Shown: positions 35,326 to 52,706 of the stretch, piece by piece
How the letters are laid out: each line of letters starts with the position of its first letter
How positions within the stretch are numbered: the stretch's first letter is position 1
IMG/VR virus record: IMGVR_UViG_3300022661_000054
DNA from: a virus
Taxonomy: Duplodnaviria; Heunggongvirae; Uroviricota; Caudoviricetes
Direction: 5' to 3' (one strand)
DNA: 64,000 nt
Notes under the pieces: model-generated
Databases searched by the model: none
Told to the model about the DNA's origin: nothing
Seen by the model: the letters and a program-made list of their open reading frames with translations, nothing else
Position numbers and translations under genes: made by a program

Positions 35326-35664
35326 TTACCAAATATACTCAATTTTAAGCCATTTATCTTCATTCTCAATAGGACAAAACAGTACTCCGGAACCGCTATC
35401 AGGATTAAACAAACTGTCATCTTGCTTCTCTAAGACGTAGCTACCATTCTCTTGTTTATCGCCTGCTGGCTCATTAACGATACTAAAAGAAACAACTTCG
35501 ATATATTCGAGGTTACAATAGCTGTCCTCTGATTTGACGGCTTCTTTAAGACTCCAAATCATCTCATCTCTTTCTCTGTCTATACTTGCCATTTGCTTCG
35601 AAAGAGCATCAATTGCTTTTACAGTATTAATGACATTTTTAGTGAGCATTTTTATCACCTTCAT
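35326..35664 (-). CDS. Hypothetical protein
   Basis: 112-aa coupled ORF. Confidence 0.6.
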   Translation of the reverse strand: MKVIKMLTKNVINTVKAIDALSKQMASIDRERDEMIWSLKEAVKSEDSYCNLEYIEVVSFSIVNEPAGDKQENGSYVLEKQDDSLFNPDSGSGVLFCPIENEDKWLKIEYIW

Positions 35665-36583
35665 GTAATATTTTTAAAGCGTCGTAAAATTTAATTTCTT
35701 TTAAATATGAAGCAGAAGTGAATTCAGCTTCATATTTATCTATAGTCTTCTGCTTCCAGTCTTTAAAGAAATGCAAAGTCATGTGATAACGAATAAGAGC
35801 AGCTACGGTAAGACTGTCTACGTCTTCTTCTTTTCCGTAGAAAAGAGAGATATAAGCACCGACATTTTCGTGGTTGTAATAATGAGCAAACTCAGAATCA
35901 TTTCCTTTAGAATCTTTGAATGCTTTACAAAAAGGCTTACCACAATCATGAAGCGCGGCAGCAATCTTAGTTTCAAGCTCAATAGCAGGCCCTAAATCTT
36001 TTTCTCTTGACTGTACATACTGAAGAGTTTTTAAACAGTGGTCACCGAGAGTTTCAGCATGCCATTTACTTTCCTGATTAAAATCGAAATGGTCAGTAAC
36101 AAAATGGCTCCAATCGCCATATTTGCTCATAGCTTCTGCATTTGCATAAGCAATTTCAATCATATTCCAACCTTCATTGTACCATGGGATATCAAAGCTC
36201 TTATACATACGTTCAAGTACATGGTAAGGCACCACACGAGATCGCTCCTGATTTCTTTGAACGCATAATTCAAAAGGAGTAGCCATAATAATACATCGCT
36301 TAAAACAATCTATATTAGTTAATTCTTGTAAAAATGCCTTACGACGCTTCCAACTGATATTAGTTGCATCATATACTACGTTCTTTCCGTCAGAAAGGTC
36401 TTCTTTTACGCGCTTGTGCAGGAGTTCAAACACCTGCTTATTAATATTTTGGTTATTTACATCGCCAGACAGTTCTTCTCTAATAGCATCGCTACTATGT
36501 ACGCTATAATTAGGATAATTACGTTCAATAAAAGTACTTTTACCACTTCCAGGTAAACCTACCATCATTACAAAAACAGACAT
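35639..36583 (-). CDS. Polynucleotide kinase (AAA_33 P-loop) fused to HD phosphohydrolase; RNA end-healing enzyme
   Basis: GLPGSGKST, SSDAIR, VVYDATN, RNQER; C-terminal H..TLGDH...ALHDCGKP...HENVGA...LHEGD. Confidence 0.85.
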   Translation of the reverse strand: MSVFVMMVGLPGSGKSTFIERNYPNYSVHSSDAIREELSGDVNNQNINKQVFELLHKRVKEDLSDGKNVVYDATNISWKRRKAFLQELTNIDCFKRCIIMATPFELCVQRNQERSRVVPYHVLERMYKSFDIPWYNEGWNMIEIAYANAEAMSKYGDWSHFVTDHFDFNQESKWHAETLGDHCLKTLQYVQSREKDLGPAIELETKIAAALHDCGKPFCKAFKDSKGNDSEFAHYYNHENVGAYISLFYGKEEDVDSLTVAALIRYHMTLHFFKDWKQKTIDKYEAEFTSASYLKEIKFYDALKILHEGDKNAH

Positions 36584-36861: not shown

Positions 36862-37656
36862 TTAATTCTCCGTCCAGTATTTAGTTAGGATATCTACTAA
36901 AATACAGTCCATTCTGTTACAAGTATCTTCAGCTACCTTACGTTCATTAGTATCTATATAAGCCTGCTTTCTAGCTTTAGCATAGTCAACAGCTTCTTTT
37001 GCAATAGCTTTTGCTTGATCTAAATCATATCTATAATTAGCTTTTACACTAATTAAGTATTCACGGTCGTATGGAATTAGACAATCTTTGTATAATACAC
37101 CATCAATGTATCTGTCAAGAAATTCTCTACATCTAATAATATGGTGAAGCTGTTTATTATCATATCCATACTTATCAATCTTGTCTTTTAACGTAGGATA
37201 AGGATGACACAAAGCAGCGTTCTTCTCTAAGATCATACCGACGATACAATTTACAGCAGCATAATTATCAATGTGTGCGATATCCTCATTAATTCTAAGC
37301 ATCTCGAGCCAAAAATAAAAGTAGTCGCGCGGTACGTAAAAGAACTCAGTAAATAAAATCTCAAGGTAGTTTACGTTCTGCTTCTTAAAACATTGCCACA
37401 TAAGTCTAATATCTTTTAAATCAATGTGTGAATTGTCTTCTAATATAAGAGTAGTACTTGTAGGCTGCTTATTTAAAATAAGGTCTTCAGCGGAAGGCAG
37501 AACAATGCACTTTGTATCGATATCACTGCCTTCATAATCCAACTGATAATTCTGTGAGCCTTGCAAAAATATGCCAAAAACTTCATATCCTTGATTTTTC
37601 ACATAATTATAATCGTGCTTTAGTCTTTCACAAATCTTAAGTTCTCTTTCAGTCAT
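36862..37656 (-). CDS. Pol-beta-superfamily nucleotidyltransferase (RlaP/YcgL-like)
   Basis: LQGSQNYQLDYEGSDIDTK (GS...DxD), KQNVNYLEILF, KQLHHIIR. Confidence 0.75.
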   Translation of the reverse strand: MTERELKICERLKHDYNYVKNQGYEVFGIFLQGSQNYQLDYEGSDIDTKCIVLPSAEDLILNKQPTSTTLILEDNSHIDLKDIRLMWQCFKKQNVNYLEILFTEFFYVPRDYFYFWLEMLRINEDIAHIDNYAAVNCIVGMILEKNAALCHPYPTLKDKIDKYGYDNKQLHHIIRCREFLDRYIDGVLYKDCLIPYDREYLISVKANYRYDLDQAKAIAKEAVDYAKARKQAYIDTNERKVAEDTCNRMDCILVDILTKYWTEN

Positions 37657-39291: not shown

Positions 39292-40083
39292 TTAATTATC
39301 GCCTCCAATAAAATTATCATCTAAAACTAGTACGTTAACTTCACCAGTATGTGCAGTACAGCGATCAATGCCGATGATTCCTTGAGATTCGTTAAAGTAC
39401 GGATCCCACTTGGCATCATCACCAAACTCTGATAGCTCACCTTGACTATCGCATAAATGACCTAAAGAACAATGCCAATGTCCGAATACGATTGTCTTAC
39501 CGGTTTTGTTCATACCGTCTTGTGCTTTCCAGAAAGGATTACCCCACATAGCTTCTTCCCACTCTACCTCGGAAGCATTACGCCAGTTCTCATTGTATTC
39601 GTAGTATTTTCCAACCTGGTGCCAAGGCTTACTAGCACCTTTATCATAATGAGTAATAGTAGGAATCCAACTATGAACAAAAATATACTTTTCAGTTTCA
39701 AAATAGTTTACAAGTAGGTCGCGATACGCTGCCGTTTTATTCAAAGCTGTATCACAGCACTTAGCAAAATCCGCCGGAAGAGGACTTCCACCGAGGTCTT
39801 GAACAGTTCTTACAGTGCCATTAGACTTATCGTGGCTATATGGAAAACATCTTGCGCAAAGATCGTCAAAAAGTAGGTCATGATTACCTTTTACTAGAAT
39901 CTTTCGCTCAAGCGACATTAAATAGTGCAACAATTCAATACTATTAGGACCCCTATCAAAGCAATCGCCGCACGAAATCAGCCAGTGTTCTTCGTTATTA
40001 GGGTCAAAACCTGCTCTGTCTAAAGCATTTTTAAGTGGTTCTAAGAAACTGTGAATATCAGAAACAACAAAAAGCTTAGGCAT
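39292..40083 (-). CDS. Calcineurin-like metallophosphoesterase
   Basis: SDIHS, GDCFDRG, GNHD, FVHS, FGHWH, IDRC. Confidence 0.9.
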   Translation of the reverse strand: MPKLFVVSDIHSFLEPLKNALDRAGFDPNNEEHWLISCGDCFDRGPNSIELLHYLMSLERKILVKGNHDLLFDDLCARCFPYSHDKSNGTVRTVQDLGGSPLPADFAKCCDTALNKTAAYRDLLVNYFETEKYIFVHSWIPTITHYDKGASKPWHQVGKYYEYNENWRNASEVEWEEAMWGNPFWKAQDGMNKTGKTIVFGHWHCSLGHLCDSQGELSEFGDDAKWDPYFNESQGIIGIDRCTAHTGEVNVLVLDDNFIGGDN

Positions 40084-40938
40084 TTATTTATCTCCTTCTG
40101 AGTAAACCCACCGTTCAATGTAGTATCTATCTTGAGTAAAAATGGGAATTTCTTTATCGATTACCCATTCACTTCTCATACAGCGAGTCTCTTCTTTTGT
40201 TTTAAAATCAATACAAATATCTTCTTTTTCTACACGATTACAGCAGACACCACGTTTAAACTCAGTAGGCATATCATTAAAATTGATACCTCTCTGAGTC
40301 ATTAACATATCTTGAATGTCATTGCAAGACTTACCGTGTAGTTCCTTATGAGAGAAGTTGCACTGACCAAGCATCTGAATTGCGTTGCGAGTAGCATCCT
40401 GCTGACGCCAGATGAAGCAGTTGGTAACTTCTTCTTTAGGAATGTTAAAACAGCGAGAATCAAACATTGCACCATTGTCAATAGCCTTCTTTAATGTATT
40501 AGCATATTTCTCAACATCTTCTTCCCAATAATGGTTTACCCATACATCAGACTGTAAATAATTATCAATTAATTCTCTAAGATACTTATTGAAAACCATT
40601 GTTGCCATGCTTGCTGACACGCTGCACATTTTCTGCACATTATAACCAAACCAAGCATCGGTATCAAGAGTGTCATAGTCTGTGAGAAGAAGAGTGATTT
40701 CGTCTGACTGTGTATAACCAAGCTTACAACCCTGGATATTCTCACAGAGATACTTCATAGTCGCATTCATAGTATTGTGGAAAATCTCGTCATAAGGCCT
40801 CTTAAGACCTTTAGTGAAGGTGTGGAAAGCTTTGCCGTCAAGTCTAATGATTACAGGAACTCGTCTAGGTAGATAATGTTTACTCCTATTTTCATAGAAT
40901 TCTTTCATTCTATCACCAAGTGCATCTTTAGTACTCAT
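40084..40938 (-). CDS. Thg1-like 3'-5' nucleotidyltransferase (tRNA-His guanylyltransferase family)
   Basis: IIRLDGKAFHTFTK...KPYD-like, GYTQSDEITL, FDSRCF, WRQQDATRN. Confidence 0.9.
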   Translation of the reverse strand: MSTKDALGDRMKEFYENRSKHYLPRRVPVIIRLDGKAFHTFTKGLKRPYDEIFHNTMNATMKYLCENIQGCKLGYTQSDEITLLLTDYDTLDTDAWFGYNVQKMCSVSASMATMVFNKYLRELIDNYLQSDVWVNHYWEEDVEKYANTLKKAIDNGAMFDSRCFNIPKEEVTNCFIWRQQDATRNAIQMLGQCNFSHKELHGKSCNDIQDMLMTQRGINFNDMPTEFKRGVCCNRVEKEDICIDFKTKEETRCMRSEWVIDKEIPIFTQDRYYIERWVYSEGDK

Positions 40939-41479
40939 ATTTTATACCTCCTGCTAGTATGCTTAATACAGTCTTAACTGCATAGTCATAACCTTCATTA
41001 TCGCCGTTAATTTCAAAATAATCAATACCAAGACCTTTATATAAATCTTTAATGCGGACACTTATACGATCACTTTCTTCTTCTGTCTGATTTCGGCCTT
41101 TAGGGTTGTAAGGTTTAACTCTGTTAATAAAGAAATTAATATTTTCATATGTATTATAAACATCCATGACTAACCTTGGATAAGACTCAGTTATTGCAGG
41201 ATTAGTATTATAAATAATACTAAGAGGAAGCGGGCTATCAGTCACAATCACATCGACATCATCTCGGCATCTACGTAATCTATAAGACTGTTTACCAAAC
41301 ACATATTCTTGACAACCTAGAGCCATAATATTATGCTCCCAGGTCTTATCTTTAGCAAATTCTGTTACAAGTTCTGCATTAACACCAGCTTTTTTAAGCT
41401 CTGCAAAAATAGTTGCTGCACCAGTGCTTTTTCCAGCACCTGGAGCTCCTGTTAAATTAACAACTAATGGTTTTTTCAT
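40928..41479 (-). CDS. P-loop kinase/ATPase (AAA_28/NadR-like)
   Basis: GAPGAGKST, VTEFAKD, VTDSPL, GRNQTEEES. Confidence 0.75.
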   Translation of the reverse strand: MKKPLVVNLTGAPGAGKSTGAATIFAELKKAGVNAELVTEFAKDKTWEHNIMALGCQEYVFGKQSYRLRRCRDDVDVIVTDSPLPLSIIYNTNPAITESYPRLVMDVYNTYENINFFINRVKPYNPKGRNQTEEESDRISVRIKDLYKGLGIDYFEINGDNEGYDYAVKTVLSILAGGIKYEY

Positions 41480-41644
41480 TTTAAATTCTCCCATACATAA
41501 TCGATAAAGATATTCCAATTCATCATTACTTGATCATAAACTTTTACTATAATATCATACAATAAAAAAAAGAAAGTTACTTATATCTAAGTAACTTTCT
41601 TAAAAAAAATCCTTGCAAAATAAACAAAGGAGGTACACCTTATA

Positions 41645-42290
41645 CATTCAAAGATAAATATAATACATTCCTAGGCCTTCGCCTTACCACTTGTTATATT
41701 CAAGTACATTCGGTCACATAGATGACAAGTCTGAGCTTCGGGGAGCGACCCCTAACTTCTTGCCACGAAATCTGGGTACTTGGTTAACGGCCAAGCCCTG
41801 GACTACATAAACTATGACAGGATTGATTACCTGCACCCCTCACCGTCTATTCAGAAAAAATTAATATCAGTATTCCTAATTATATACTAGCATTAATTCT
41901 TTGTTAATTGTCTTCGGCTACTAGGAGGTTACTTGAATCTCTTATACCCACATTTCTATGGTTCACGACAAATGAGATTATTGGCATTTCCAAGGTGTAA
42001 TACAGTCACCAACTAAACCCTAACTTGGATTCGGCTCAGCTATTAACCAAGCTTTCTATTACTCTCACGAGACTCTTCCTACCATTACTTGCTATAACAT
42101 CAGCACATACAACATATGTTTCGGGTCCTACCCTTAACTCATATACTCGCATATATAAGTAGCGCGGTTTCCGAGGTATCCCTCTTATGTTACCATCACA
42201 CATTGTTCAGCTTTCGCTTAGTTGCATTCTCAGCACAAGAAGCGTGTCTTGTGTTTAGCACTGAGTTAGTAATTATATTTATCTTTCAAG
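41645..42290 (-). ncRNA. Large structured ncRNA, ROOL-like (GOLLD not excluded)
   Basis: ~640-nt ORF-free region closed by a perfect 15-bp helix (41650-41664 with 42272-42286); own promoter at ~42310; many hairpins; 3' motifs GGGGUCGCUCCCC and CUCAGACUUGUC recalled from large phage ncRNAs; next to the tRNA array. Confidence 0.6.
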
Positions 42291-42304
42291 GTACAAATTG
42301 TTGA

Positions 42305-42345
42305 TATTATATTATACAATATGTTTTTTAAAATTTTAATTTAAT
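42305..42345 (-). promoter_or_regulatory. Sigma-A-like promoter (ATTGTATAAT -10) upstream of the large ncRNA; representative of a recurring motif
   Basis: Same (T/C)GTAT(A/T)ATA motif near 1208, 2570, 4570, 10170, 25921, 29035, 47864, 48306, 49310, 51628, 52497, 54988. Confidence 0.55.
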
Positions 42346-42369
42346 TTTAAAAAATATTTAAAAACCTTT

Positions 42370-42445
42370 TGGTGGACCCAGCGAGGGTCGAACTCGCGAC
42401 CTCTAGTTTGCAGGACTAGTGCTCTCCCAATTGAGCTATGGGCCC
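42370..42445 (-). tRNA. tRNA-Ala(UGC)
   Basis: Cloverleaf, G3:U70, encoded CCA; loop CC-UGC-AA (C at 33). Confidence 0.9.
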
Positions 42446-42518
42446 ATATCTTAGCCCTGGGTTAATTACGTCCAGAACTAAAACACATTTGCAAATCTTT
42501 GTGCTTGTTAACAGCACT

Positions 42519-42564
42519 CGGTGCCCGCGGTAGGATTCGAACCCACTCAACGCCATAACGGGCA
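42519..42564 (-). ncRNA. tRNA top-half minihelix (acceptor + T arm only)
   Basis: TGCCCGT-11 nt-GTGGG TTCGAAT CCTAC-C-GCGGGCA-CCG. Confidence 0.55.
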
Positions 42565-42673
42565 TATATAAATATGACTGACTCGGCCGGTTAGGAAACT
42601 GTACACCGCAAGTTCTTTAGCTATCACTTTTCGCCTCGCTACCTAAGCATTAACGCCAGTCATATTCAACAAA

Positions 42674-43345
42674 TTAATCTTTCAAGTATCTCCATATAAA
42701 GCCATAAGCAGTTTTTCGTTTACCTTTGCAAACCTCTAGAATGTGAGCTCTAATTGCGCCGCCTTTAGCATCAGAAATACCACTATCTCGAATCCACTGC
42801 TCAGCTTCATAAGAATTAGTAACACTATGAATTAAATTATTTTTTAAATCATAAATATTTATTGGTTTACTATAAAGCTCTTTTACTAAATCCGGGCTAG
42901 ACTTAACTTGAATATTAGCAGCTTTAGCAATATCGATAATTGTGTCTTTTGTGCACTTAAAAACTTCTGCAGCATCCTTAACACAATTATTATTACGTAA
43001 ATACTGAATAATCGCGCGTCTATCATAAAGCATCTTGCTTCCGCCACCCAAAGTAGCGTTATAACCAGGACCAAGCGGATCTTTACAAAAAGTATGAAAT
43101 TTCGTAATCCAATAAATTTCTCGGTCATTTAAAAGCTCTGGATCATCAGCTAGTTCTTCAACAACTTCTATAGTAAAAGCTGAATAACCATACTTTAACA
43201 TAGCTTTGTACAGAGGTCTTTTACTGTGACCAGTTCTAGCGCTGTCTTTTAAATGCTCTGCAAACCTTTTTTCTAATGAATAAAGTGTTTGACCTATGTA
43301 AGCCTTGCCATTAAGATTATTTGTAATTTTATAAATATAAGCCAT
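42674..43345 (-). CDS. Free-standing GIY-YIG homing endonuclease (Seg-like, NUMOD1-type C-terminus)
   Basis: MAYIYKITN...YIGQT...RFAEH...LNDREIYWI...GYNATLGG; C-terminal ILEVCKGKRKTAYGFIWRY. Confidence 0.9.
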   Translation of the reverse strand: MAYIYKITNNLNGKAYIGQTLYSLEKRFAEHLKDSARTGHSKRPLYKAMLKYGYSAFTIEVVEELADDPELLNDREIYWITKFHTFCKDPLGPGYNATLGGGSKMLYDRRAIIQYLRNNNCVKDAAEVFKCTKDTIIDIAKAANIQVKSSPDLVKELYSKPINIYDLKNNLIHSVTNSYEAEQWIRDSGISDAKGGAIRAHILEVCKGKRKTAYGFIWRYLKD

Positions 43346-43463
43346 AAGAATCACCTAGTTAGTAACTTAGTAGCAGCTGCATTACTAACTAGGTTACTTA
43401 TTTATTGGACAATTCAGTTTAATTAACAACTCACACCACGTGAAGGTATGTCCATTGTGAGTC

Positions 43464-43536
43464 AGCTGGTTGACGGACTTGAACCCCCGACCTGCTCATT
43501 ACAAGTGAGCTGCTCTACCAACTGAGCTAAACCAGC
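43464..43536 (-). tRNA. tRNA-Thr(UGU)
   Basis: Cloverleaf, loop CU-UGU-AA; no encoded CCA; one T-stem mismatch. Confidence 0.85.
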
Positions 43537-43745
43537 ATATAAGAGGGACTGTTATGCAGGTCTCAACCCTCGCCTACACCATGATTAAAAAGAGCTCATG
43601 ATTGCTTCTTATAAACACGATTCGTTTCGAGTTTTAACCGGGTCAAAACGCTTCGTAGATAAGTCTACCGTACCTCTAAGCTCCCGCATATTTTCTAAAT
43701 GTTTATTTGTATAAGGTCGTATGAAAATACCTAACAGTAGACCTT

Positions 43746-43890
43746 TGGCGACTCCGATCGGGATCGAACCGACGACCTCCTGCGTGTGGAGCCTTATACT
43801 AGTCTTGCACTAGCATCTCTTTATAAGAGTGTTTTACTATTAAACTAATAAAGCACAGGCAGGCGTTCTAACCATCTGAACTACGGAGCC
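43746..43890 (-). tRNA. tRNA-Asp(GUC) interrupted in the anticodon by a nested tRNA-like element
   Basis: GGCTCCG/CGGAGTC G CCA; anticodon stem CCTGC/GCAGG; loop CTGT|C AC after removing 43787-43854. Confidence 0.8.
43787..43854 (-). ncRNA. Nested tRNA-like element (68 nt, CCA end)
   Basis: GCTTTAT/ATAAGGC T CCA acceptor; D-like GTTT..AAAC; stunted CTCTT-ATA-AAGAG; T arm GCTAG TGCAAGA CTAGT. Confidence 0.75.
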
Positions 43891-44121
43891 ATATGGTAGC
43901 ATGGCTGAGTTTTTTAAGGTTACCTCAAGCGTTGCTAACTGTTCATCCTATCTATATTAAACCTCTCATTCCTCAACCAAAGTTCTTACTCTTGGAATGT
44001 TGACCCGCTCACACCTTGGTGAAACGATTGATGCATCAATTTGTCTTCTGTTATAGGTCGATTACCGTAGCCTTGGATTGCATAGATAATGCGCATTAAT
44101 GCTATAACAAAGAAGCTTAAA

Positions 44122-44208
44122 AGACAAATACTAGACTCGAACTAGTTCCTGACAATCCAATCCCGTTGATAGGGCATTCTGTCTTATGCTACCTTACACC
44201 AATTTGCC
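44122..44208 (-). ncRNA. tRNA-like element with expanded anticodon loop
   Basis: GGCAAAT/ATTTGTC acceptor, D arm GTG..CAT, T arm ACTAG TTCGAGT CTAGT; GACA/TGTC stem encloses ~25 nt; no CCA. Confidence 0.55.
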
Positions 44209-44352
44209 ATATAGCTACAGTGCATTGCCGATGCTTTGTATCACATTGCTGTAGTACCAACGCTTAGTTCGCATAACTTCCTGCGAACTGCCGTTACGCT
44301 CATTTACCGCTGAGCCGTGCGTACTTGTGTTGGCAAGGTACAAGCGAACCTT

Positions 44353-44427
44353 TGGAGGCGGGGGAAGGATTCGAACCTTCGACACCTGACTTATGAGGAC
44401 AGTGAGCTACCTCTGCTCTACCCCGCG
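44353..44427 (-). tRNA. tRNA-Met(CAU), initiator-like body
   Basis: CGCGGGG with C1:C72 mismatch, GAGC/GCTC D stem, loop CU-CAU-AA, CCA; lacks the 3 G:C anticodon-stem pairs. Confidence 0.8.
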
Positions 44428-44987
44428 ATATATTTTATAATGTAGTTTATTCTCTTACCCTTTTATTTCACTACTTGCCTGCTTATCCACAGTAATATAA
44501 ATTACCTGATACGAGTTTCTCAAGGGTACAGGCTATAACTGATTTTATCGTTGTCTGCCAACTATCTTATTCCTTAATAAGCAAATTTGGGAGCATTTAT
44601 CGTTTGCCCAAACATTTTAGTCTTTACACCAAAATTCTATGTTTCAGATTACCACATTGTCAGCACAATGACCATTAAGGATTTTGTTAAGGGATATGTT
44701 CCCTTACTCGATGGACCAGGGTCTTTCAACCAGCCCTATCAAATAGGTGAACTCGCACAACAGTTCACAGTAGATATCACCACATAGACATCTTTACCTC
44801 ACATAGTTAACACTATGATTTTTGATAAAGCGGTAACCAGCCACACCCATGCTTCCTTCACTACTTAACTTCTGGTTTCATAGCTCGCATGTGCCCTTAC
44901 TATTTGATATTTGTGGGGCTTTATACCCACTCGTTTCTTAAAACGACAAGCACATAGTTATTCAACGGTAACTCTACGAAACCCACC

Positions 44988-45063
44988 TGGCTCCTCGTGG
45001 TGGACTCGAACCACCGACATACGGATTAACAGTCCGCCGTTCTACCTACTGGACTAACGAGGA
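44988..45063 (-). tRNA. tRNA-Asn(GUU)
   Basis: Cloverleaf TCCTCGT/ACGAGGA G CCA, loop CU-GUU-AA. Confidence 0.93.
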
Positions 45064-45170
45064 ATATAAAATCAATTACAAAAATACAAGCAGTGCAAGC
45101 ACCGGTTGTCTAAAACTTCATTGACATTGTTTTATGCTGCAATATAATTTAGCTAATAAAATAAACTAAA

Positions 45171-45296
45171 TTATTTATTTTTCGCTAACTCTTTACGAAG
45201 CTGTCTCTGAAGCTTTTTAATAATGCTGTTATTATCTCGATCACGACCTGACAAAAGTGCAATACGATTTTCAAAATACTGTGCGTCTCTAGTCAT
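45171..45296 (-). CDS. Small basic hypothetical protein (41 aa)
   Basis: MTRDAQYFENRIALL... with SD GGAG; the longer track ORF reads through tRNA-Ser. Confidence 0.5.
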   Translation of the reverse strand: MTRDAQYFENRIALLSGRDRDNNSIIKKLQRQLRKELAKNK

Positions 45297-45322
45297 AAAA
45301 ACAACTCCCTTAAATTTAATCG

Positions 45323-45411
45323 TGGCGGAGAGGGTGGGATTCGAACCCACGGACCCTTTCGGGTCGACGGTTTTCAAGACCGTTCCGTTATAACCACTTC
45401 GGTACCTCTCC
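45323..45411 (-). tRNA. tRNA-Ser(UGA)
   Basis: Class II cloverleaf with GACCC-GAAA-GGGTC variable arm, G73, CCA. Confidence 0.95.
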
Positions 45412-45523
45412 ATATATTTAAAAGGCTTCTCACCTATTTGGTATATCCGGTATACTTTCAACCGGCTATGTCGATATATACTTACCGCTATTTACCACCC
45501 ATACAATAGTAGGTTTATGTATT

Positions 45524-45856
45524 TTAAAGCTCCGACTTTTCGTCTACAAATAAGTTATCATAGAGCTTTTTAACATCCTGCTCAAACTGATTAAACTTCT
45601 TATCGAGACTCTTATAGTAGTTTTTCAATAGTTTATCTTTAACTACCTGTTTACCAACCTCAACATCGAACTCATCATCAGGATGACATACAGTAGAAGA
45701 CTTAAAACTTGTTGGCATTAAGTAGCTAGTCCAAGTACAACCAAGTGAAGTACCTTCTAATTTCTTTTGAATAGCAAGAACTGCATCAAATTCTGTATTT
45801 TCCAAAATACCTACAGTCATTTTCTTTTCTGGAATAGTAATATACTTAATAGCCAT
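45524..45856 (-). CDS. Hypothetical protein
   Basis: 110 aa; CHPDDEFDVEVGK motif common in phage proteins; SD GGAG. Confidence 0.7.
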   Translation of the reverse strand: MAIKYITIPEKKMTVGILENTEFDAVLAIQKKLEGTSLGCTWTSYLMPTSFKSSTVCHPDDEFDVEVGKQVVKDKLLKNYYKSLDKKFNQFEQDVKKLYDNLFVDEKSEL

Positions 45857-45890
45857 TTTTAATTCTCCATTGTTTCTTTAGTATAAATTA

Positions 45891-45977
45891 TGGTGCACCT
45901 GGTGGGACTCGAACCCACAAGACCTTTCGATCACTACCCCCTCAAGATAGCGCGTTTGCCAATTTCGCCACAAGTGC
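45891..45977 (-). tRNA. tRNA-Leu(GAG)
   Basis: Class II cloverleaf, loop UU-GAG-GG, A73, CCA. Confidence 0.9.
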
Positions 45978-46208
45978 GTATAAATAATACTTTTACATAA
46001 TAGAATAAATTCCATCCAGGTTCATAGCCTTTCATACCAGACTACCGTAGTTTCCTTAACGGTCGAACCGTTAAATTTTTAAGGTCTCGCATAATGCCAG
46101 TAGCACGTCATTACAGCTGATTACGTCACTAAAACCTATTCTGTTATGTCATTTTCATTCTTTTTGAGGGCAAGCAAACCGCTCAAATCAGTAGGAGCTA
46201 CCTACAAG

Positions 46209-46285
46209 TGGAGCAACACACGAGACTCGAACTCGTACCATCTGCTTGGAAGGCAGAGATGCTAGCCATTAAACACCAGTGCTGC
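46209..46285 (-). tRNA. tRNA-Gly(UCC)
   Basis: Loop CU-UCC-AA, U73, CCA. Confidence 0.93.
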
Positions 46286-46548
46286 ATGTTATACAGTGTT
46301 GACCCCGATAGCTCTCACAGCTAAAAGTCACTCCACACACTGGGCTACCACTAATTGCGGCTTCTTTACTGACTCGTAGGCACTGTACATATAAATAGGT
46401 TAAGGATTCCCTAGAACCACACATCTCGCCTCTCTTGACCTGCTTTCAACTACTAATAACGTTTTCAATCTATATGCGCAGCAAGATTTACTTAGTAATT
46501 ACTTTCATTTAAGCACTAGGGCTGGCGGACATTTGCTCTCTGCCCTTC

Positions 46549-46624
46549 TGGTCTAAGTGACAGGACTCGAACCTGCGGCATCTTGATCCCAAATCAAGCA
46601 TTCTACCAACTGAATTACACCTAG
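46549..46624 (-). tRNA. tRNA-Pro(UGG)
   Basis: Loop UU-UGG-GA, CCA. Confidence 0.93.
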
Positions 46625-46732
46625 ATTTTTGGCGAAGTTAAGGTCCCTCAACCGCGAATCTCGTTACGATAATAATCTAAGCCGGCTGATTACTACCTCT
46701 GACCCAACGACTATTTGCTACAAACGGCAACG

Positions 46733-46818
46733 TGGTGGAAAGAGATGGAGTCGAACCACCCGAGCCTGAGGCAACAGATTTACAGTCTGCCCCGCTACCA
46801 CTTACGGTATATCTTTCC
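46733..46818 (-). tRNA. tRNA-Tyr(GUA)
   Basis: Loop CU-GUA-AA, long variable arm, A73, CCA; slightly atypical D region. Confidence 0.88.
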
Positions 46819-46831
46819 ATATAAAATAAAA

Positions 46832-46937
46832 CAGATGAGGTTGGAGTTGCACCAACGAAACTGTATAACCCACATGTATACTAAGGTTAATCAGTAGAGA
46901 TTACGGTCCCTTACTTTGACTTCTTGTATACTCATCT
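46832..46937 (-). ncRNA. tRNA-like element with non-canonical expanded core
   Basis: Perfect acceptor AGATGAG/CTCATCT stacked on T arm GTTGG TGCAACT CCAAC; ~75-nt middle has no normal D or anticodon arm. Confidence 0.5.
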
Positions 46938-47148
46938 AAAAAATTAATTTACAGGACCGGTTTCCTTATCCTATTTTCGGAAGTAAATTAATTCCGCTAC
47001 TTACACTTTAGATTAAGTTATTGACCCCAAACTTAGATGAACAAGCAGTAAGAACTATAAGGGGGAAAGTTTTATAGATAAATCACTTTCAAAACTCTCC
47101 ACTTTCGTAGGAACACGTGGTAGCCTTGTACAGAGGGGCTCAACCTCT

Positions 47149-47246
47149 TGGACACGACAGCAGGACTTGAACCTACTTATCTTCAAGAAATCAATCTTGG
47201 TCTTTTTCCTGGGATTCGGATGCTTTACCACATAAGCTATATCGTG
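47149..47246 (-). ncRNA. tRNA-like element with aberrant anticodon/variable region
   Basis: CACGATA/TGTCGTG T CCA, good D arm GCTT..AAGC, T arm GTAGG TTCAAGT CCTGC; no assignable anticodon. Confidence 0.6.
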
Positions 47247-47256
47247 ATATTAGGTT

Positions 47257-47332
47257 TGGTGCGCCATCCGCGGCTCGAACGCGGGACCTAAGCATTAAAA
47301 GTGCTTTGCTCTTCCTACTGAGCTAATGGCGC
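47257..47332 (-). tRNA. tRNA-Lys(UUU)
   Basis: Loop CU-UUU-AA, CCA. Confidence 0.93.
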
Positions 47333-47365
47333 ATATATAAAGCGGTAACTATACCGCATTGTTTT

Positions 47366-47420
47366 TGGTTGCGGACACAAGGTTCATGAGGCCTTGACTT
47401 TCTAGAAAGATTCCGTCCGC
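47366..47420 (-). ncRNA. CCA-ended mini-tRNA lacking anticodon arm
   Basis: GCGGAC/GTCCGC..ACCA, internal hairpin CTTTC-TA-GAAAG, T-like CAAGG/CCTTG. Confidence 0.5.
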
Positions 47421-47507
47421 GTGCCAGGCGGGAGTTTGATTTATTATTATATCTTTCCCGTTCGCCGACTCCTTTAACGGTCTGGACTTTCGGTTAATGG
47501 TACCATT

Positions 47508-47590
47508 TGGTGCGGGCGACAGGACTTGAACCTGCACGCTTTTGGCAATAGATCCTAAATCTATCGTGTCTGCCATTCCACCACGCCCGC
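47508..47590 (-). tRNA. tRNA-Leu(UAG)
   Basis: Class II cloverleaf, loop UU-UAG-GA, CCA. Confidence 0.93.
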
Positions 47591-47774
47591 ATATTAAATG
47601 ACTTATCTACATCACACTAATGAATAAGTCTGATTCTGTATTTTACTTCTTGCAGAATACCATTGAAGGCTTTTTCGTCCATACATTGTAGTGTGTTGTA
47701 CTTTCGGAGTTTCGCGTCTCTCAGGAGATTTTGACGTTCTTGCAAAAACATCTTGGCTTATCTCTTAACCTTGT

Positions 47775-47846
47775 GGAAGTGAGTTAGAGTCGAACTAACC
47801 TCAGTGCCTACACTTTTTGTCAGCCTTATGAGTCCCTTTTCACTTC
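47775..47846 (-). ncRNA. Degenerate tRNA-like element
   Basis: GAAGTGA/TCACTTC acceptor + GTTAG TTCGACT CTAAC T arm; middle not canonical. Confidence 0.5.
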
Positions 47847-47977
47847 ATATTTAATTACATATTTATTATACGATACGAATTTATATATTTTAACAAATTT
47901 TATAAATATTTTAAGCATAAAAAATGACGCTTAAATGAATTTAATCATTATAAGCGTCACTAGATTATCGAGTATTT

Positions 47978-48094
47978 TTACTCACTGAATAACCAATGAC
48001 GCCACTCTGGTGGTCTTGAATAATCAAATTTAGGCATAGCTCCGCCAGCTGTTTTAATTAGTGAATTATAATTAAAATTAACTGACTTTTTCAT
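47978..48094 (-). CDS. 38-aa peptide
   Basis: MKKSVNFNYNSLIKTAGGAMPKFDYSRPPEWRHWLFSE, SD AGGAG, preceded by GCTAAATTA. Confidence 0.4.
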   Translation of the reverse strand: MKKSVNFNYNSLIKTAGGAMPKFDYSRPPEWRHWLFSE

Positions 48095-48491
48095 AGCTAA
48101 TATCTCCTTAAATTATTTTTATTCTATATCTAATTTAGCGTATAATCTAAATTAGAATTTTAAAAATTGCCAAGCTCTTTCTCTCAAGTCTTGTCGGGCT
48201 TTCACCGTTTGGACTTTGTTGCTTTGTATCATATGTATCATTGAAAGGGGAATGCATATGATTAATAAAGCTATTCACAAAACAATGGTAAAAATTACCA
48301 TGTAATATTATACAGTAAAAAATTTAAATATTTTATAAAAATCTTATTTTTTCTGTAAATTAATTTATGTAATATAGCCAACTCATAGATAGCTGGCTAT
48401 AATATTCTTATAAATTAAATTCTTAGCTTGACACTCATTCTTAAATATGTTTTACTATTTTTAATACTTGTTAAACATATCTGTCTTTTTC

Positions 48492-49256
48492 TTACTTCAC
48501 GAAATACTGTAATGCTTTTGTAGCATTTTGTTGTCTCACGCCATAAGATCCAGACCCACATCTCTCATAATATTTTGCAAAATACAATGCTGCTTCTTTT
48601 TCATCTTGCATATTATAGAAAGAATTGCCTTTCGGAATTACTTCAAACAATTCAACAGATAAAAACCTTATCTGGTCTTCAAGTGTTGTGCCAAAATCAT
48701 TTAGAAGTCTTTGTTTCCTACTGCCAGCCCACTGACAAATACCATAATAAGTTTTTTGACTATACTGAGGCCATCTTGAAATATCAAGCGTTTGACCACC
48801 AACTTCTGCCATAATATTACCCATGATACCTGCACACACGTAATCATTAAGACCTAAAGCTTTTAATGATTTCCATACCTTAGTAGCCTGGTTATAATTA
48901 CCATCAGCCTTAAAAGAATTTGAAACTATCTGCTTCTGTTGTGAAACGACCTTCTTAGTTTCCTGTAATTCTTTTTTAAGCTCTTGGATTTGTGCGTCCT
49001 TGTCAAGAAGGACTTTCTCATTCTCAACAAGTGTCTCTTCTTGCTCAGACACTTTTGTTTCTAACTCTTCATTTTGTTTTCTTAAAGAATCAAGTTCTGT
49101 TTGTAATACCGATACTTCTTCTTTATATGAAGATCTGTGACTAGTAAAACTAATAGCTTGTATAGCTACTATAATCACAAGTGCAATAATTGTGCACGTT
49201 TTTATAAGATTACTGTAGTTTTTCAGATACTTCAGCATCTTAAAAATAATACTCAT
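48492..49256 (-). CDS. Membrane-anchored coiled-coil protein with phage-tail-type lysozyme domain
   Basis: N-terminal TM, coiled coil, CAGIMGNIMAE...GICQW...QIRFL..EL...FAKYYER. Confidence 0.75.
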   Translation of the reverse strand: MSIIFKMLKYLKNYSNLIKTCTIIALVIIVAIQAISFTSHRSSYKEEVSVLQTELDSLRKQNEELETKVSEQEETLVENEKVLLDKDAQIQELKKELQETKKVVSQQKQIVSNSFKADGNYNQATKVWKSLKALGLNDYVCAGIMGNIMAEVGGQTLDISRWPQYSQKTYYGICQWAGSRKQRLLNDFGTTLEDQIRFLSVELFEVIPKGNSFYNMQDEKEAALYFAKYYERCGSGSYGVRQQNATKALQYFVK

Positions 49257-49637
49257 TATTTACTCCCTTCGATACATAAAGATATTAGAATTTTATTGAC
49301 TGTACTAATATTATACAGTACAAAACATCTTTATGTCGCAGCAGAGCATCAAGAATTTATTTAAGAATTTATTTTATAAAGAAAAAGATTTATGAGTAAC
49401 TCGTTCTGCAGTTGAGTCGACCCCTTGACTGACATAAATCAAATCAGGTTAGGCTTTTGTTTATGTAGTATCACATCTACTCTGGTCGGTCCAGATTAAG
49501 GGAAACCTTTATCTCTTTACCCTTCATAGAAACCAGTCATACGTTTAAGATTTGTGTGACTAACACCGTACGCTCCGATTACGTTAAGCTTCGATCCATT
49601 TGTGTGATTTTTAAATATCAGGAAGGATGTCCTTATG

Positions 49638-49710
49638 TTACGGTTGTAGGATTTGAACCTATACTTCCGACCAAAAGGCCGGCGTTCTATCCAATTAAAC
49701 TATCTCCGCA
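49638..49710 (-). pseudogene. Degenerate tRNA (undetermined)
   Basis: D arm GTT..AAC, T arm ATAGG TTCAAAT CCTAC, broken acceptor, anticodon hairpin CCGGCC-TTTT-GGTCGG. Confidence 0.45.
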
Positions 49711-50058
49711 TATATAGTTAAAAAATAATATAAGCTTTCTTACTCTACGCCTAGACACTATTTTCACTTACGACCATGTATTTAGCACTCTCCATACGGG
49801 GACGTGCATGGTATGATAAATTACTAAGTTGGTCTGCGTAGCCACTCCTCATCCTGGACCCGATTCTTGCTTACTAACCCGTTAGGTACCTCTTGTGAAG
49901 GTCGGCGTTCAGTCTCACCACTGTAACACAAGTCAGCGGGAATCTCTCGTGGTACCGATCATTTTTTCAGCCTTTACTTCTTCCACCACAGTTCGGGGGC
50001 CCTTTGGCATTGCTTCGTCTCTTAAGTGTACTCTGCCGCCTCAGAAAGATTATATTAA

Positions 50059-50132
50059 TGGCAGGCCGCCAAGGATTTGAACCCTGACCAACTGGGTTGG
50101 AGCCAGTCATGCTACCGTTACACCAACGACCT
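50059..50132 (-). tRNA. tRNA-Trp(CCA)
   Basis: AGGTCGT/GCGGCCT G CCA, loop CU-CCA-AC. Confidence 0.92.
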
Positions 50133-50344
50133 ATAAAATTCACCGTGGACTACTTACATTGTTCACCAGATTACCAGTGTAGCATCCTTTAACAATACGT
50201 TTATCTTTTATCAATAAAGCACTACCAGTATCAATACAGGGGCACGGCTACTCTACTCCCTGGTGACGATTAGCTGATTCTCACGTCCAACGATATTCCC
50301 GCCCCAGTCCACCCAGTGGGAACTTATTAAAATACTATATAGCA

Positions 50345-50416
50345 CTACGCTTACGGACTCGAACCGTGTCTCCCAACAGATTAGGTCAGGTGTTTTACCA
50401 GTTAAACTATTACGCA
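50345..50416 (-). pseudogene. Degenerate tRNA (undetermined)
   Basis: D arm GTTT..AAAC and TTCGAGT T loop; acceptor and anticodon stems mispaired. Confidence 0.4.
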
Positions 50417-50614
50417 GATATTATCTAGTTCGTGCTATCCAAGACTTTTTACCACATTTAGGACATTTTGTTCTTCTATAGTCTTTCATTCGGAAAAACA
50501 CAAATTCATGAAAAGGAGCTTTCAAGATCCATTTCCAATAATTAGATTCCCATTCGTGATTACATTCTGGGCACTGTAACTTTACCTTCATAAAGTACCT
50601 CTAAATAAATAATT

Positions 50615-50704
50615 TGGCGGAGGAGGGGAGATTCGAACTCCCGCACCCTTTCGGGCCTAACGCGTTAGCAGTGCGTCCTCTTCGACCAGCTTGAGTACTC
50701 CTCC
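50615..50704 (-). tRNA. tRNA-Ser(GCU)
   Basis: Class II cloverleaf, loop CU-GCU-AA, G73, CCA. Confidence 0.95.
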
Positions 50705-50711
50705 ACAATTT

Positions 50712-50788
50712 TGGCTGGGCAGGCTGGACTCGAACCAGCGAAATGACGGAGTCAAAGTCCGTTGCCTTACCGACTTGGCTACTGCCCA
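50712..50788 (-). tRNA. tRNA-Gln(UUG)
   Basis: TGGGCAG/CTGCCCA G CCA, loop CU-UUG-AC. Confidence 0.95.
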
Positions 50789-50941
50789 ATAAATAAAAGT
50801 TATTTTAATTTATATTTTCATTTAAACCTTGCCCGCGGCACTGTGACCATATGAATAAACTACTTCTATAAATTAAGGTTACTATCCTATGGAATGGGCA
50901 TTTTTCTGCTGGGGAACCTTATCCACTAATTATAACCCCTG

Positions 50942-51093
50942 TGGTGACGCGTACGGGAATCGAACCCGTGATACCGCCGTTGGTGCTAGATGTCAGACTC
51001 GAACTGACACATAACCTCTATCTCTAGTGGCCTGCCTTACCTTTTGGCTAATCTAACGAAAGGGCGGTGTCTTAACCGCTTGACCAACGCGCC
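50942..51093 (-). tRNA. tRNA-Glu(UUC) interrupted after position 36 by a nested tRNA-like element
   Basis: GGCGCGT/ACGCGTC A CCA; stem CCGCC/GGCGG; loop CTTTC|AC after removing 50981-51057. Confidence 0.8.
50981..51057 (-). ncRNA. Nested tRNA-like element (77 nt, CCA end)
   Basis: GTTAGAT/ATCTAGC A CCA; D arm GCC-AAAAGGTAA-GGC; T arm GTCAG TTCGAGT CTGAC; degenerate anticodon arm. Confidence 0.8.
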
Positions 51094-51161
51094 ATATGTA
51101 ACGAAGGTTGCTTTTTTCATAGAAGAGTGTGCTACATCGTTACCTCTAAATTCTCACTCTT

Positions 51162-51249
51162 TGGTACGCCATCGAGGAGTCGAACCTCGCAATCCCGAAG
51201 ATTACCGTGGTGTATAAGACCAGTGCCCTCACCGCTGAGCTAATGGCGT
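51162..51249 (-). tRNA. tRNA-Ile(UAU) with long variable arm
   Basis: Loop CU-UAU-AC, variable hairpin TAATC-TTCG-GGATTG, A73, CCA. Confidence 0.8.
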
Positions 51250-51254
51250 ATATA

Positions 51255-51331
51255 TGGTGGACCATCTAGGACTCGAACCTAGGACCGACCGGTTATGAGC
51301 CGGGAGCTCTAACCAACTGAGCTAATGGTCC
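51255..51331 (-). tRNA. tRNA-Ile2(CAU, lysidine type)
   Basis: GGACCAT TA GCTCAGTTGGTTAGAGC..CTCATAACCG..GGTCC A CCA resembles Bacillota tRNA-Ile2. Confidence 0.85.
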
Positions 51332-51414
51332 ATAAACTAGTTTATGCACTTAAAACTAGCAAAACGGTCGTTTCTATTTAACCCATTCAACAGAAACTGA
51401 AAAACATAAAGGTC

Positions 51415-51553
51415 TGGTGCGGGATATCGGACTTGAACCGATACGGTATCACTACCGAGGGATTTTTGGTACTTGATGTAGGTACTGCCCCTACTAGATA
51501 GACACTATGTCATCAAGCAAGTCCCTTGCGTCTGCCTATTCCGCCAATCCCGC
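51415..51553 (-). tRNA. tRNA-Leu(UAA) interrupted between positions 34/35 by a nested mini-tRNA
   Basis: GCGGGAT/ATCCCGC A CCA, Leu-type D loop and long variable arm; stem AGGGA/TCCCT; loop CTT|AAAA after removing 51467-51518. Confidence 0.8.
51467..51518 (-). ncRNA. Nested mini-tRNA (52 nt, CCA end)
   Basis: GCTTGAT/ATCAAGT A CCA; hairpin GACA-TAG-TGTC; T-like arm GTAGG GGCAGTA CCTAC. Confidence 0.75.
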
Positions 51554-51561
51554 ATATAAAG

Positions 51562-51619
51562 GCCAAGCTAAATTCATTTAAAAGATGATCGCTATTCAGC
51601 AGAAATAAGCATTGGCTCT
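51562..51619 (-). ncRNA. Y-RNA-like small RNA, copy 1
   Basis: AGA GCCAA-U-GCU UAUUUCU ... AGC-UUGGC; own promoter at ~51630. Confidence 0.7.
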
Positions 51620-51842
51620 ATGCGTTATATTATACAATCTAATTACTTAAAATTTATAGTGTTTTAAAAAAATTTTAAAAATATTTTTTCCGCTAAAGGA
51701 CTCTCACCTTTAGGAGCAAGGGTTGGCTTCGCGTTTGCAACCACTTCCAACGGTCTTTCTTCTATCATTAACTCTTGTGACCAGCATCTAATTCGTTTAC
51801 CTTGCTTTTTCATATCTAAATACTTTTAAGAGTTTTTCTTTT

Positions 51843-51917
51843 TGGTCGGCAACATTCGGAATTGAACCGCCACCCAGCCCAACACTCGGCCGTGTTCTAC
51901 CATTAAACTATTATGCC
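51843..51917 (-). pseudogene. Degenerate tRNA (GUG in an 8-nt loop, His-like?)
   Basis: D arm GTT..AAC, TTCAATT T loop, CCA, mispaired acceptor. Confidence 0.45.
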
Positions 51918-52568
51918 TAAACTCTGCTACCTTTGGGTCACGCTGTACAGGCGTCCGTTTCCAAAGTTGTACGTTGTAGCGTATTCTAATATGGCTTTAT
52001 ACTCACTACGGAATAAATGATAATCTTTCCCACTGATTATCTGACAACTTATCTCTCATCATTAATTCCACGTTCTGTTACCAGATAGCTTATGGCTTTT
52101 ACCTGAGCGAGCTTCATTCTCTCGGCAGGCGAAGTTGTCCCTACTGTCCTTAATCATCCGCCAATAATAAAACGGAACGGCCTATGCTAGTTAATGGCCT
52201 GCGGGCGGTTCATCTATGAGGAAATGACCTTGTAATGACCCTTACGGAGCATCCAACTAATCATCTATTCCACAGTGCATCCTCATAGACATATCGGAGT
52301 TCAACCGAATTTATTTTTTTAAGTTTTTTATCAATCTCATAAGCATTACTTATCTCATTGAAAGGTTTTCAACACTTACAAACCAATTTAAGGCTGTTCA
52401 TCACACTCCATTTACCACTGCTGCTTCTTCGCTAGAGTTAGGCGTTGACCTTAAATCACAGCCTAAACCAACGCTTCGTGGCACCTAACGTATTTTATTA
52501 TACAATGTGTTCTTTATAAATTTAGCACTTATTAAATTAATAATTTAATAAATTATTAAAAATATTTG

Positions 52569-52682
52569 GACTAGCTAAAAGGTGCTCTACCGCTGAGCTA
52601 CATTTCACCTAACAGATGAAATGGTTGGATTCGAACCAACGACCACCCGCTTAAAAGGCGTTAAGAAATAAGCATAGTCTCT
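52569..52682 (-). ncRNA. Y-RNA-like RNA, copy 2, enclosing a circularly permuted tRNA-Lys(UUU)-like domain (YrlA-like)
   Basis: GACUA-U-GCU/AGC-UAGUC stem; order anticodon hairpin - T arm - loop-closed acceptor stem - D arm. Confidence 0.8.
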
Positions 52683-52706
52683 ATAAATATATTACAATAA
52701 AATATA

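Follow-up and report, generated by a model that had tools for sequence, protein, structure and literature searches.

How can a functional tRNA be obtained from a gene whose anticodon is interrupted by an element that itself resembles a tRNA? This question is raised by positions 43746-43890 on the minus strand of the window, by which we mean the whole 64-kb stretch of phage DNA that was analyzed. The locus is a tRNA-Asp(GUC) gene split between U35 and C36 by a 68-nt insert. Using the Rfam tRNA model and ARAGORN, the 5' part of the outer tRNA (positions 1-35) is assigned to 43855-43890 (minus strand) and comprises the acceptor 5' strand, the D arm, the anticodon stem 5' strand, and the loop residues C32, U33, G34, and U35. 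The same tools, with ARAGORN applied to the spliced form, assign the 3' part to 43746-43786 (minus strand), which comprises C36, A37, and C38, the anticodon stem 3' strand, the variable loop, the T arm, the acceptor 3' strand, G73, and CCA. The Rfam model RF00005 spans 43749-43890 (minus strand) end to end (50.5 bits, gathering threshold 29) and treats 71 nt as one anticodon-loop insertion. ARAGORN finds the gene when introns are allowed and misses it with default settings. Once 43787-43854 are removed in silico, it reports a 77-nt cloverleaf tRNA-Asp(gtc) with every stem paired, a CUGUCAC loop, and a G73-CCA end. The outer gene has a G+C content of 61% and the insert of 32%. A first-pass annotation, made without database searches, had read the minus strand of 43746-43890 as a tRNA-Asp divided inside its anticodon (GU|C); its reading held exactly and so did the position of the split.

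The assignment to aspartate rests on several elements. By E. coli rules, the Asp identity set consists of G73, the anticodon G34-U35-C36, C38, and G10, and each of them is found in the outer gene. With the uninterrupted tRNA-Asp of four relatives, the body of the outer tRNA shares 66-81% identity, as compared with 54-56% for their tRNA-His. The latter comparison matters since ARAGORN in intron mode also returns a tRNA-His(GUG) in which the intron is moved by one base, a reading that is ruled out by G73, by the similarity of the tRNA body, and by the boundary rule of the 19 other cases described below. The first-pass annotation had also invoked the G73 discriminator and stated that this is the only Asp tRNA of the window; both claims held, no second tRNA-Asp being found in the 64 kb searched. 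A referee could suspect that the nesting was created during assembly. This is ruled out: the JGI contig Ga0187902_10123651 (L138, metagenome 3300018430) is 100% identical to the window over 44984-42463, the whole nested gene included. Because this independent contig is identical over 2.5 kb and the protein neighbors recur on more than 20 contigs, we do not consider the nested tRNA-Asp an assembly artefact.

The insert (43787-43854, minus strand, 68 nt) is recognized as a tRNA in its own right by the Rfam tRNA model when searched alone (40.5 bits, E-value 4.5e-8, model positions 1-71). Its acceptor stem is 7 bp long, its D stem 4 bp, and its T stem, which closes a 7-nt loop, 5 bp; the 3' end is U73-CCA. 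Its anticodon arm amounts to 13 nt rather than 17, folding either as 5 bp closed by a 3-nt loop or as 2 bp with a 7-nt loop, and the tRNA model deletes six stem positions there. Since this arm is only 13 nt long, the insert should be unable to decode normally. Thus, the acceptor, D, and T arms that had been proposed beforehand are confirmed, as is the shrunken, non-decoding anticodon arm, with the reservation that the 3-nt loop has the 7-nt loop as an alternative. When four inner elements were submitted alone (those of Asp, Glu, Leu, and the tRNA-Lys of contig G003), ARAGORN reported no tRNA. The insert also carries the predicted features of an RNase P/RNase Z substrate, namely a coaxial 12-bp acceptor/T helix, a 7-nt T loop, a single-stranded 5' leader, and a 3' NCCA. 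Thermodynamic folding is less favorable: the minimum free energy of the Asp precursor is -45.0 kcal/mol versus -35.7 kcal/mol for the nested cloverleaf, pair probabilities do not exceed 0.10, and the inner acceptor stem is not recovered. The 68-mer alone folds no better than shuffled sequences (z -1.2), so that the free-energy test is uninformative or negative for this AT-rich element. No Rfam ribozyme or intron family matches 43700-43940 (E-values up to 10) or 41000-53000 (E-values up to 1), and hammerhead, twister, hatchet, pistol, and HDV-like motifs return no match within the same limits. Scans for the exact junction patterns in IMG/VR (Asp and Glu) and in JGI metagenomes (Asp only) yielded nothing, or chance matches in coding DNA.

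The window originates from an uncultured, large tailed phage with a genome of roughly 220 kb. Its DNA has a G+C content of 33%, and nearly all genes are held by the minus strand. The proteins of the window recur on an ENA contig of 220,267 bp as well as on over 20 further contigs; no close relative of the window was found among GenBank phages, where matches are tRNA-sized only. A peptidase with an SLH domain, assigned as a lysin, is encoded just beyond the window edge, suggesting an S-layer or Gram-positive-type host. Elsewhere in the window, we noticed a 2917-aa ORF (13375-22128, minus strand), a pyruvate formate-lyase-like glycyl-radical enzyme (23372-25603, minus strand, 689 bits), and a protein with an ART-PolyVal ADP-ribosyltransferase domain (4631-5251, minus strand). 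The nested tRNA-Asp lies in an RNA island at 42.3-51.6 kb that contains about 20 tRNA genes. A full-length ROOL RNA (41653-42289, minus strand; RF03087, 286 bits versus a gathering threshold of 99) stands at the low-coordinate end of this island. Other RNA matches are weaker: a DUF3800-XI RNA (44691-44737, minus strand) is barely over its gathering threshold (40.1 bits versus 37.8), and a YrlA/Y-RNA-like match (52549-52668, minus strand) is under it (39 bits versus 69). The latter adjoins an unannotated ORF of 665 residues (52707-54704). Pfam and PHROGs searches report, beside the tRNA island, a set of genes evocative of RNA end-healing and repair, comprising a P-loop kinase plus HD gene (35639-36583), a nucleotidyltransferase (36862-37656), a metallophosphoesterase (39292-40083), a Thg1-like 3'-5' polymerase (40084-40938), and an AAA_28 kinase-like gene (40928-41518), all on the minus strand; a cREC gene is located at 27267-27653. 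A free-standing, Seg-like GIY-YIG endonuclease gene (42677-43345, minus strand; PF01541) lies 400 nt downstream of the nested tRNA-Asp. A tie between the two is unsupported, homologues of this gene also adjoining uninterrupted tRNA clusters in relatives.

The island harbors further odd tRNA-like genes. Two of them, AT-rich and devoid of CCA (49637-49710 and 50344-50417, both minus strand), are 67% alike; ARAGORN assigns a 2-nt "anticodon" to one, and the D arms of both resemble that of the Asp insert. Another one (47149-47246, minus strand) is conserved in no fewer than three related phages, as exemplified by L089:1936-2053 and L090 c11315-11414. In this gene and its kin, the acceptor, D, and T arms are well formed and a CCA end is present, the anticodon arm being swapped for a longer segment with the motif CCGAATCCCAGGTAA. 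At window position 45062, where tRNA-Asn starts, the phage sequence of the JGI contig L097 (1459-2509) is fused to extremely AT-rich, low-complexity DNA; this junction is likely an assembly chimera with eukaryote-like DNA of the same sample.

The nested organization is not restricted to tRNA-Asp. Two other genes of the window are built alike: a tRNA-Glu(UUC) at 50942-51093 (minus strand; RF00005, 49.5 bits, and ARAGORN) and a tRNA-Leu(UAA) at 51415-51553 (minus strand; ARAGORN). The former contains a tRNA-like insert of 77 nt (50981-51057) between positions 36 and 37, the latter a 52-nt mini-tRNA (51467-51518) between positions 34 and 35. Both inserts start at base 1 of a 7-bp acceptor stem and end with ACCA. 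The Leu mini-tRNA, the smallest of the set, consists of the acceptor stem, one hairpin, and the T arm. Relatives of the phage were gathered through their Thg1-like and lysozyme-like proteins, the nested design was turned into a covariance model (R1), and 83 IMG/VR contigs were searched with it; one pattern scan of the whole IMG/VR contributed further nested genes. Ordinary tRNAs score at most 72 bits with R1 and nested ones 70-156 bits, the overlap among the weakest being resolved by length (131-193 nt). In total, 20 nested genes were identified in 12 contigs, the three of the window and 17 in eleven other IMG/VR phage contigs. The outer tRNAs are tRNA-Lys(UUU) in eight cases, Thr(UGU) and Ile(UAU) in three each, Gln(UUG) in two, and Asp, Glu, Leu(UAA), and Asn in one each, with the proviso that the identity of five of the 20 is taken from the model alignment only. 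The phages L164, L178, and L155 possess two or three nested tRNAs each.

The boundaries of these inserts obey a strict rule. The insertion site is always in the single-stranded loop, between positions 32 and 33 (two genes), 34 and 35 (eight), 35 and 36 (eight), or 36 and 37 (two). The inserts, 52-118 nt long (the longest being in a tRNA-Thr of L178), end with NCCA in 18 cases out of 20 and with the discriminator in the remaining two. In all 20 genes, excision from the inner +1 through CCA, or the discriminator in those two, leaves a 7-nt anticodon loop with an anticodon that fits the tRNA body. Considering both aligned and hand-parsed genes, every insert has an acceptor stem, a T stem, and a single-stranded 5' leader, and none has kept a normal anticodon arm. 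A U precedes the 5' cut site in 17 of 20 genes, and a G occupies +1 in 17 of 20; both are known preferences of bacterial RNase P. In the 18 precursors that were aligned, 97.5% of the pair cells contain standard pairs versus 36-44% when partners are slid by 1-3 columns. Within the inner element, pairing holds in 96% of the acceptor-stem cells and 100% of the T-stem cells, and two-sided changes affect 11 of 12 inner pairs (7/7 in the acceptor stem, 4/5 in the T stem). It should be kept in mind that this alignment was fitted to the model, which favors such pairing figures. The nested tRNA design is a real and recurrent feature that does not arise by chance, and its boundaries are exact. In L178, most tRNA genes lack an encoded CCA, yet two inserts end with CCA. 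The idea that inserts are devoid of CCA only where the tRNA genes of the phage are too fits contig G054 and is contradicted by L178, with its CCA-less outer tRNAs and CCA-ended inserts. A different kind of insert, of 79 nt, hairpin-rich, not tRNA-shaped, and without CCA, occupies the anticodon loop of tRNA-Asn(GTT) in the IMG/VR contigs L165, L172, and L177, and L161 contains yet another insert of 85 nt; other intron types may thus exist in phage tRNA genes.

Comparison with relatives establishes that the inserts are gained or lost and that the outer tRNAs are conserved. Uninterrupted tRNA-Asp and tRNA-Glu genes are present in contigs G001, G004, G005, and G006, and uninterrupted tRNA-Leu(UAA) genes in G001, G004, and G005. 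The G001 orthologues are 91% (Glu), 94% (Leu), and 81% (Asp) identical to the outer genes of the window. Since these orthologues are uninterrupted, the insert is not required at the DNA level, just as expected of an intron. The anticodon stem of tRNA-Asp, whose strands lie on either side of the insert, exhibits two double, compensatory changes as compared with the G001 orthologue. Regarding the origin of the inserts, that of tRNA-Glu aligns over its length, anticodon arm excepted, with the tRNA-Thr(UGU) of G001, from which it follows that inserts descend from real tRNA genes no longer able to decode. Between the Asp insert and one carried by a tRNA-Thr of contig G014, identity amounts to 65%, a value reached by none of 500 shuffles; the D arm and T loop are conserved between them, and the acceptor and T stems have been rebuilt via compensatory changes. 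The T arm of the Leu insert has 18 nt in common with the insert of a tRNA-Lys, also in G014. Because related inserts occupy different tRNAs at different positions, they must move. A multi-copy mobile element is ruled out, each insert being single-copy in all DNA examined.

We propose that the insert is an intron for which the tRNA shape, and not a ribozyme core or a bulge-helix-bulge motif, is the defining trait, a proposal that we consider as likely to prove right as wrong and none of whose steps has been shown. The gene would be transcribed as a 145-nt double cloverleaf, in which RNase P would read the inner element as a pre-tRNA and cut directly 5' of its G+1 (43854/43855), leaving the outer 5' part with a U35-3'OH end. 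A tRNA 3'-end endonuclease of the RNase Z/BN type, acting after CCA, would then cut at 43786/43787 and leave a 5'-phosphate on C36. The two outer parts would be kept together by the outer acceptor and anticodon stems, and an ATP-dependent Rnl-type RNA ligase, of phage or host, would close the nick left in the anticodon loop, yielding a functional tRNA-Asp(GUC), the freed 68-nt tRNA look-alike being non-decoding. In the absence of RNA data, the excision itself, the enzymes, the chemistry of the ends, the ligation, and the mature aminoacylated tRNA are all inferred. Processing at these same two bonds, which the first-pass annotation had implied, likewise remains an inference, although it fits all comparative data.

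This route is favored because the insert boundaries coincide with RNase P and 3'-processing ends, the minimal substrate is kept, ligases occur in relatives, and the interrupted genes serve common codons. Indeed, Rnl-type ligases join 3'-OH and 5'-phosphate termini, the ends produced by RNase P and RNase Z, and of the 74 related phage contigs, 43 encode an RNA ligase (PF09414), often a few kb away from the tRNA island. The codons GAU, GAA, and UUA (50, 53, and 30 per 1000, respectively) are among the most used by the phage, no further tRNA for Glu or Leu(UAA) was found in the window, and all stems of the outer tRNAs pair, so that these appear functional as far as can be inferred from sequence.

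Several observations weigh against the RNase P/Z route. Its weak step is the 3' cut after CCA: CCA inhibits RNase Z in many bacteria, and precursors bearing it are trimmed by exonucleases, in which case the outer 3' part would be lost. The only enzymes known to cleave just after CCA are the RNase Z of Thermotoga and the RNase BN of E. coli. The energy models, which disfavor the inner acceptor stem of the Asp precursor, also count against it, and the nearby kinase-HD, metallophosphoesterase, and cREC genes hint at a chemistry of cyclic phosphate and 5'-OH, at odds with the 3'-OH and 5'-phosphate ends expected from RNase P/Z. No RNA ligase was found by Pfam, PHROGs, or tblastn with a ligase of the relatives, in a window that covers 64 kb of a roughly 220-kb genome, and a search with a relative's ligase did not return any protein of a 220-kb contig among its 120 best matches. 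RtcB and Rnl1-type ligases were not found in five relatives; as the Rnl1 (PF09511) search missed in control genomes also, this shows little. Lastly, the presence of a ligase does not follow that of nested tRNAs, contigs G003, G012, and G073 giving sub-threshold matches only.

The best surviving alternative, which remains possible, is that the intron is removed by a dedicated endonuclease, perhaps phage-encoded, that recognizes the tRNA-shaped insert or the junction; the resulting 5'-OH and 2',3'-cyclic phosphate ends would be healed by the kinase-HD, metallophosphoesterase, and cREC proteins before ligation. In its favor, the end-healing gene cluster lies 2-8 kb from the nested tRNA-Asp, the introns of Lak phages (see below) bear a 5' extension beyond the reach of RNase P, and most bacteria have no obvious enzyme for the post-CCA cut. 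However, no candidate enzyme has been identified, the end-healing genes, whose presence is explained by the repair of anticodon-nuclease damage, also occur in relatives devoid of nested tRNAs, and the boundaries coincide with RNase P and tRNA 3'-processing ends in 20 cases out of 20, which a junction-specific enzyme would not need.

A second alternative, which we consider unlikely, is that no splicing takes place, either because a tRNA-derived mobile element has inactivated the gene or because the outer tRNA is a scaffold releasing the inner RNA through RNase P and 3' processing, its halves being discarded. Inserts of one family in different tRNAs do indicate movement (65% identity between those of Asp and Thr, a common T arm in those of Leu and Lys), and the several free-standing, non-decoding tRNA-like genes of the island make a role of their own possible for such RNAs. 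Against this reading, removal of the insert gives back a perfect cloverleaf and an exact 7-nt loop in all 20 outer tRNAs, compensatory changes are seen across the insert, the window has no tRNA other than the interrupted genes for three of its commonest codons, and each insert is single-copy, unlike a proliferating element. A third one, that the unprocessed 145-nt chimera is a decoy or sponge for tRNA-targeting defense nucleases or tRNA-binding proteins of the host, is very unlikely: the tRNA types involved (Lys-UUU in 8 of 20, Thr, Asn, Glu, Asp, Gln) are known anticodon nuclease targets and the island also carries ROOL and Y-RNA-like RNAs, but a decoy does not require boundaries that restore the exact anticodon loop, the interruption destroys the loop site recognized by these nucleases, and an accessible acceptor/T minihelix is expected to be cut by RNase P.

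A bolder reading can be formulated, which we regard as improbable, in which the inserts are mobile introns of tRNA shape whose spread takes place through RNA. The repair ligase of the phage would now and then seal a whole small tRNA-like RNA into the gap made in a phage tRNA by an anticodon nuclease, and the chimera would be copied to DNA. The sealed-in RNA would have a 5'-phosphate and a CCA-3'OH, and excision by RNase P/Z followed by religation would be the reverse reaction. If true, this would account for the mature tRNA ends of inserts even where the tRNA genes of the phage lack CCA, as in L178. The junction might even gain a 2'-O-methyl group, as in Pnkp/Hen1 repair, which would make the spliced tRNA resistant to anticodon nucleases of the host; this is no more than a possibility.

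Returning to tRNA-shaped introns removed by RNase P and a 3' endonuclease, their consequences can be considered. As currently thought, the tRNA genes of bacteria and phages are not known to contain introns other than self-splicing ones (group I). A tRNA excised from a tRNA by universal end-processing enzymes and a ligase would, if true, constitute a third route of tRNA splicing, and phage RNA ligases would gain a housekeeping substrate besides damage repair. In practical terms, nested genes can be annotated with simple rules: an insert running from +1 to CCA or the discriminator, a site in the loop from 32/33 to 36/37, and a non-decoding inner arm. Such genes escape the standard bacterial tRNA finders, ARAGORN by default having missed all three of the window, and phage tRNA repertoires are therefore undercounted for the commonest codons.

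Compared with known systems, the nested tRNAs share traits with several and depart from each in some respect. The punctuation of mitochondrial transcripts by tRNAs, the t-elements of plant mitochondria, and the MALAT1 mascRNA are tRNA-like signals for cuts by RNase P (5') and RNase Z (3'). They likewise are tRNA-shaped, non-decoding elements in a longer transcript, but there the cuts serve to part RNAs from one another and the flanks are not rejoined, unlike what we propose here. In phage T4, Pnkp and Rnl1 repair the tRNA-Lys cut in its anticodon loop by PrrC. There too, a phage ligase seals tRNA halves that are held by their stems and broken in the anticodon loop, and nested inserts occur most often in tRNA-Lys(UUU) (8 of 20). 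However, the T4 system repairs damage and does not remove an encoded insert, and its ends need healing from cyclic phosphate and 5'-OH. Protein-spliced introns of archaea and eukaryotes (EndA/TSEN with RtcB or Trl1) are also near the anticodon, removed by proteins, and followed by exon ligation, removal and ligation being inferred in the phage case. A bulge-helix-bulge intron is nevertheless ruled out here, the junctions being at 35/36 and not 37/38, beside a 7-bp helix and a single-stranded NCCA, without a 3-4-3 motif; moreover, bacteria and their phages are not known to possess a splicing endonuclease. Group I introns of bacterial, plastid, and phage tRNAs likewise reside in the anticodon loop, are patchy among relatives, usually have a U before the 5' splice site, and have homing-endonuclease genes nearby; the classic tRNA-Leu(UAA) intron is at 34/35, as is the Leu insert of the window. 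A group I intron is however excluded by size (68 nt versus more than about 200 nt), by the absence of a P3-P9 core or of any Rfam intron match, by a terminal A in place of the conserved G, and by a fold that is that of a tRNA and not P1-P9.

The closest parallel is provided by the Lak megaphages, in whose tRNA genes Devoto et al. (2019, Nat Microbiol 4:693, PMC6784885; Fig. 4, Table S6) described "enigmatic" introns. They noted that the intron of a tRNA-Thr(TGT) "itself may encode a tRNA" and offered neither a mechanism nor a rule; in the literature that we searched in full text, no mechanism for such introns was found and this report is the sole precedent. Re-reading the sequences of Table S6, we find that the Lak introns of Tyr, Thr, Phe, and Gly tRNAs end in an acceptor/T-arm unit that abuts the 3' junction. 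Lak introns and those of the window are both anticodon-loop inserts of phage tRNAs, too small to be ribozymes. They differ in that Lak introns are placed after the anticodon, lack CCA, and bear, 5' of their tRNA-like unit, about 30 additional nt made up of a hairpin and A-rich sequence, whereas the Asp insert of the window, at 35/36, consists of precisely one tRNA-like unit that starts at +1 and ends with CCA. RNase P alone could not strip the Lak 5' extension, so that another enzyme may exist. The hosts differ as well, Lak phages infecting Prevotella and the SLH-domain lysin of the window phage suggesting a Gram-positive-type host. If a tRNA-shaped phage intron is defined by a restored 7-nt loop, an acceptor/T unit at the 3' junction, and a presence/absence polymorphism, the Asp case satisfies the definition, and the inserts of the window represent a new form of the barely described kind of phage tRNA intron for which the Lak phages set the precedent.
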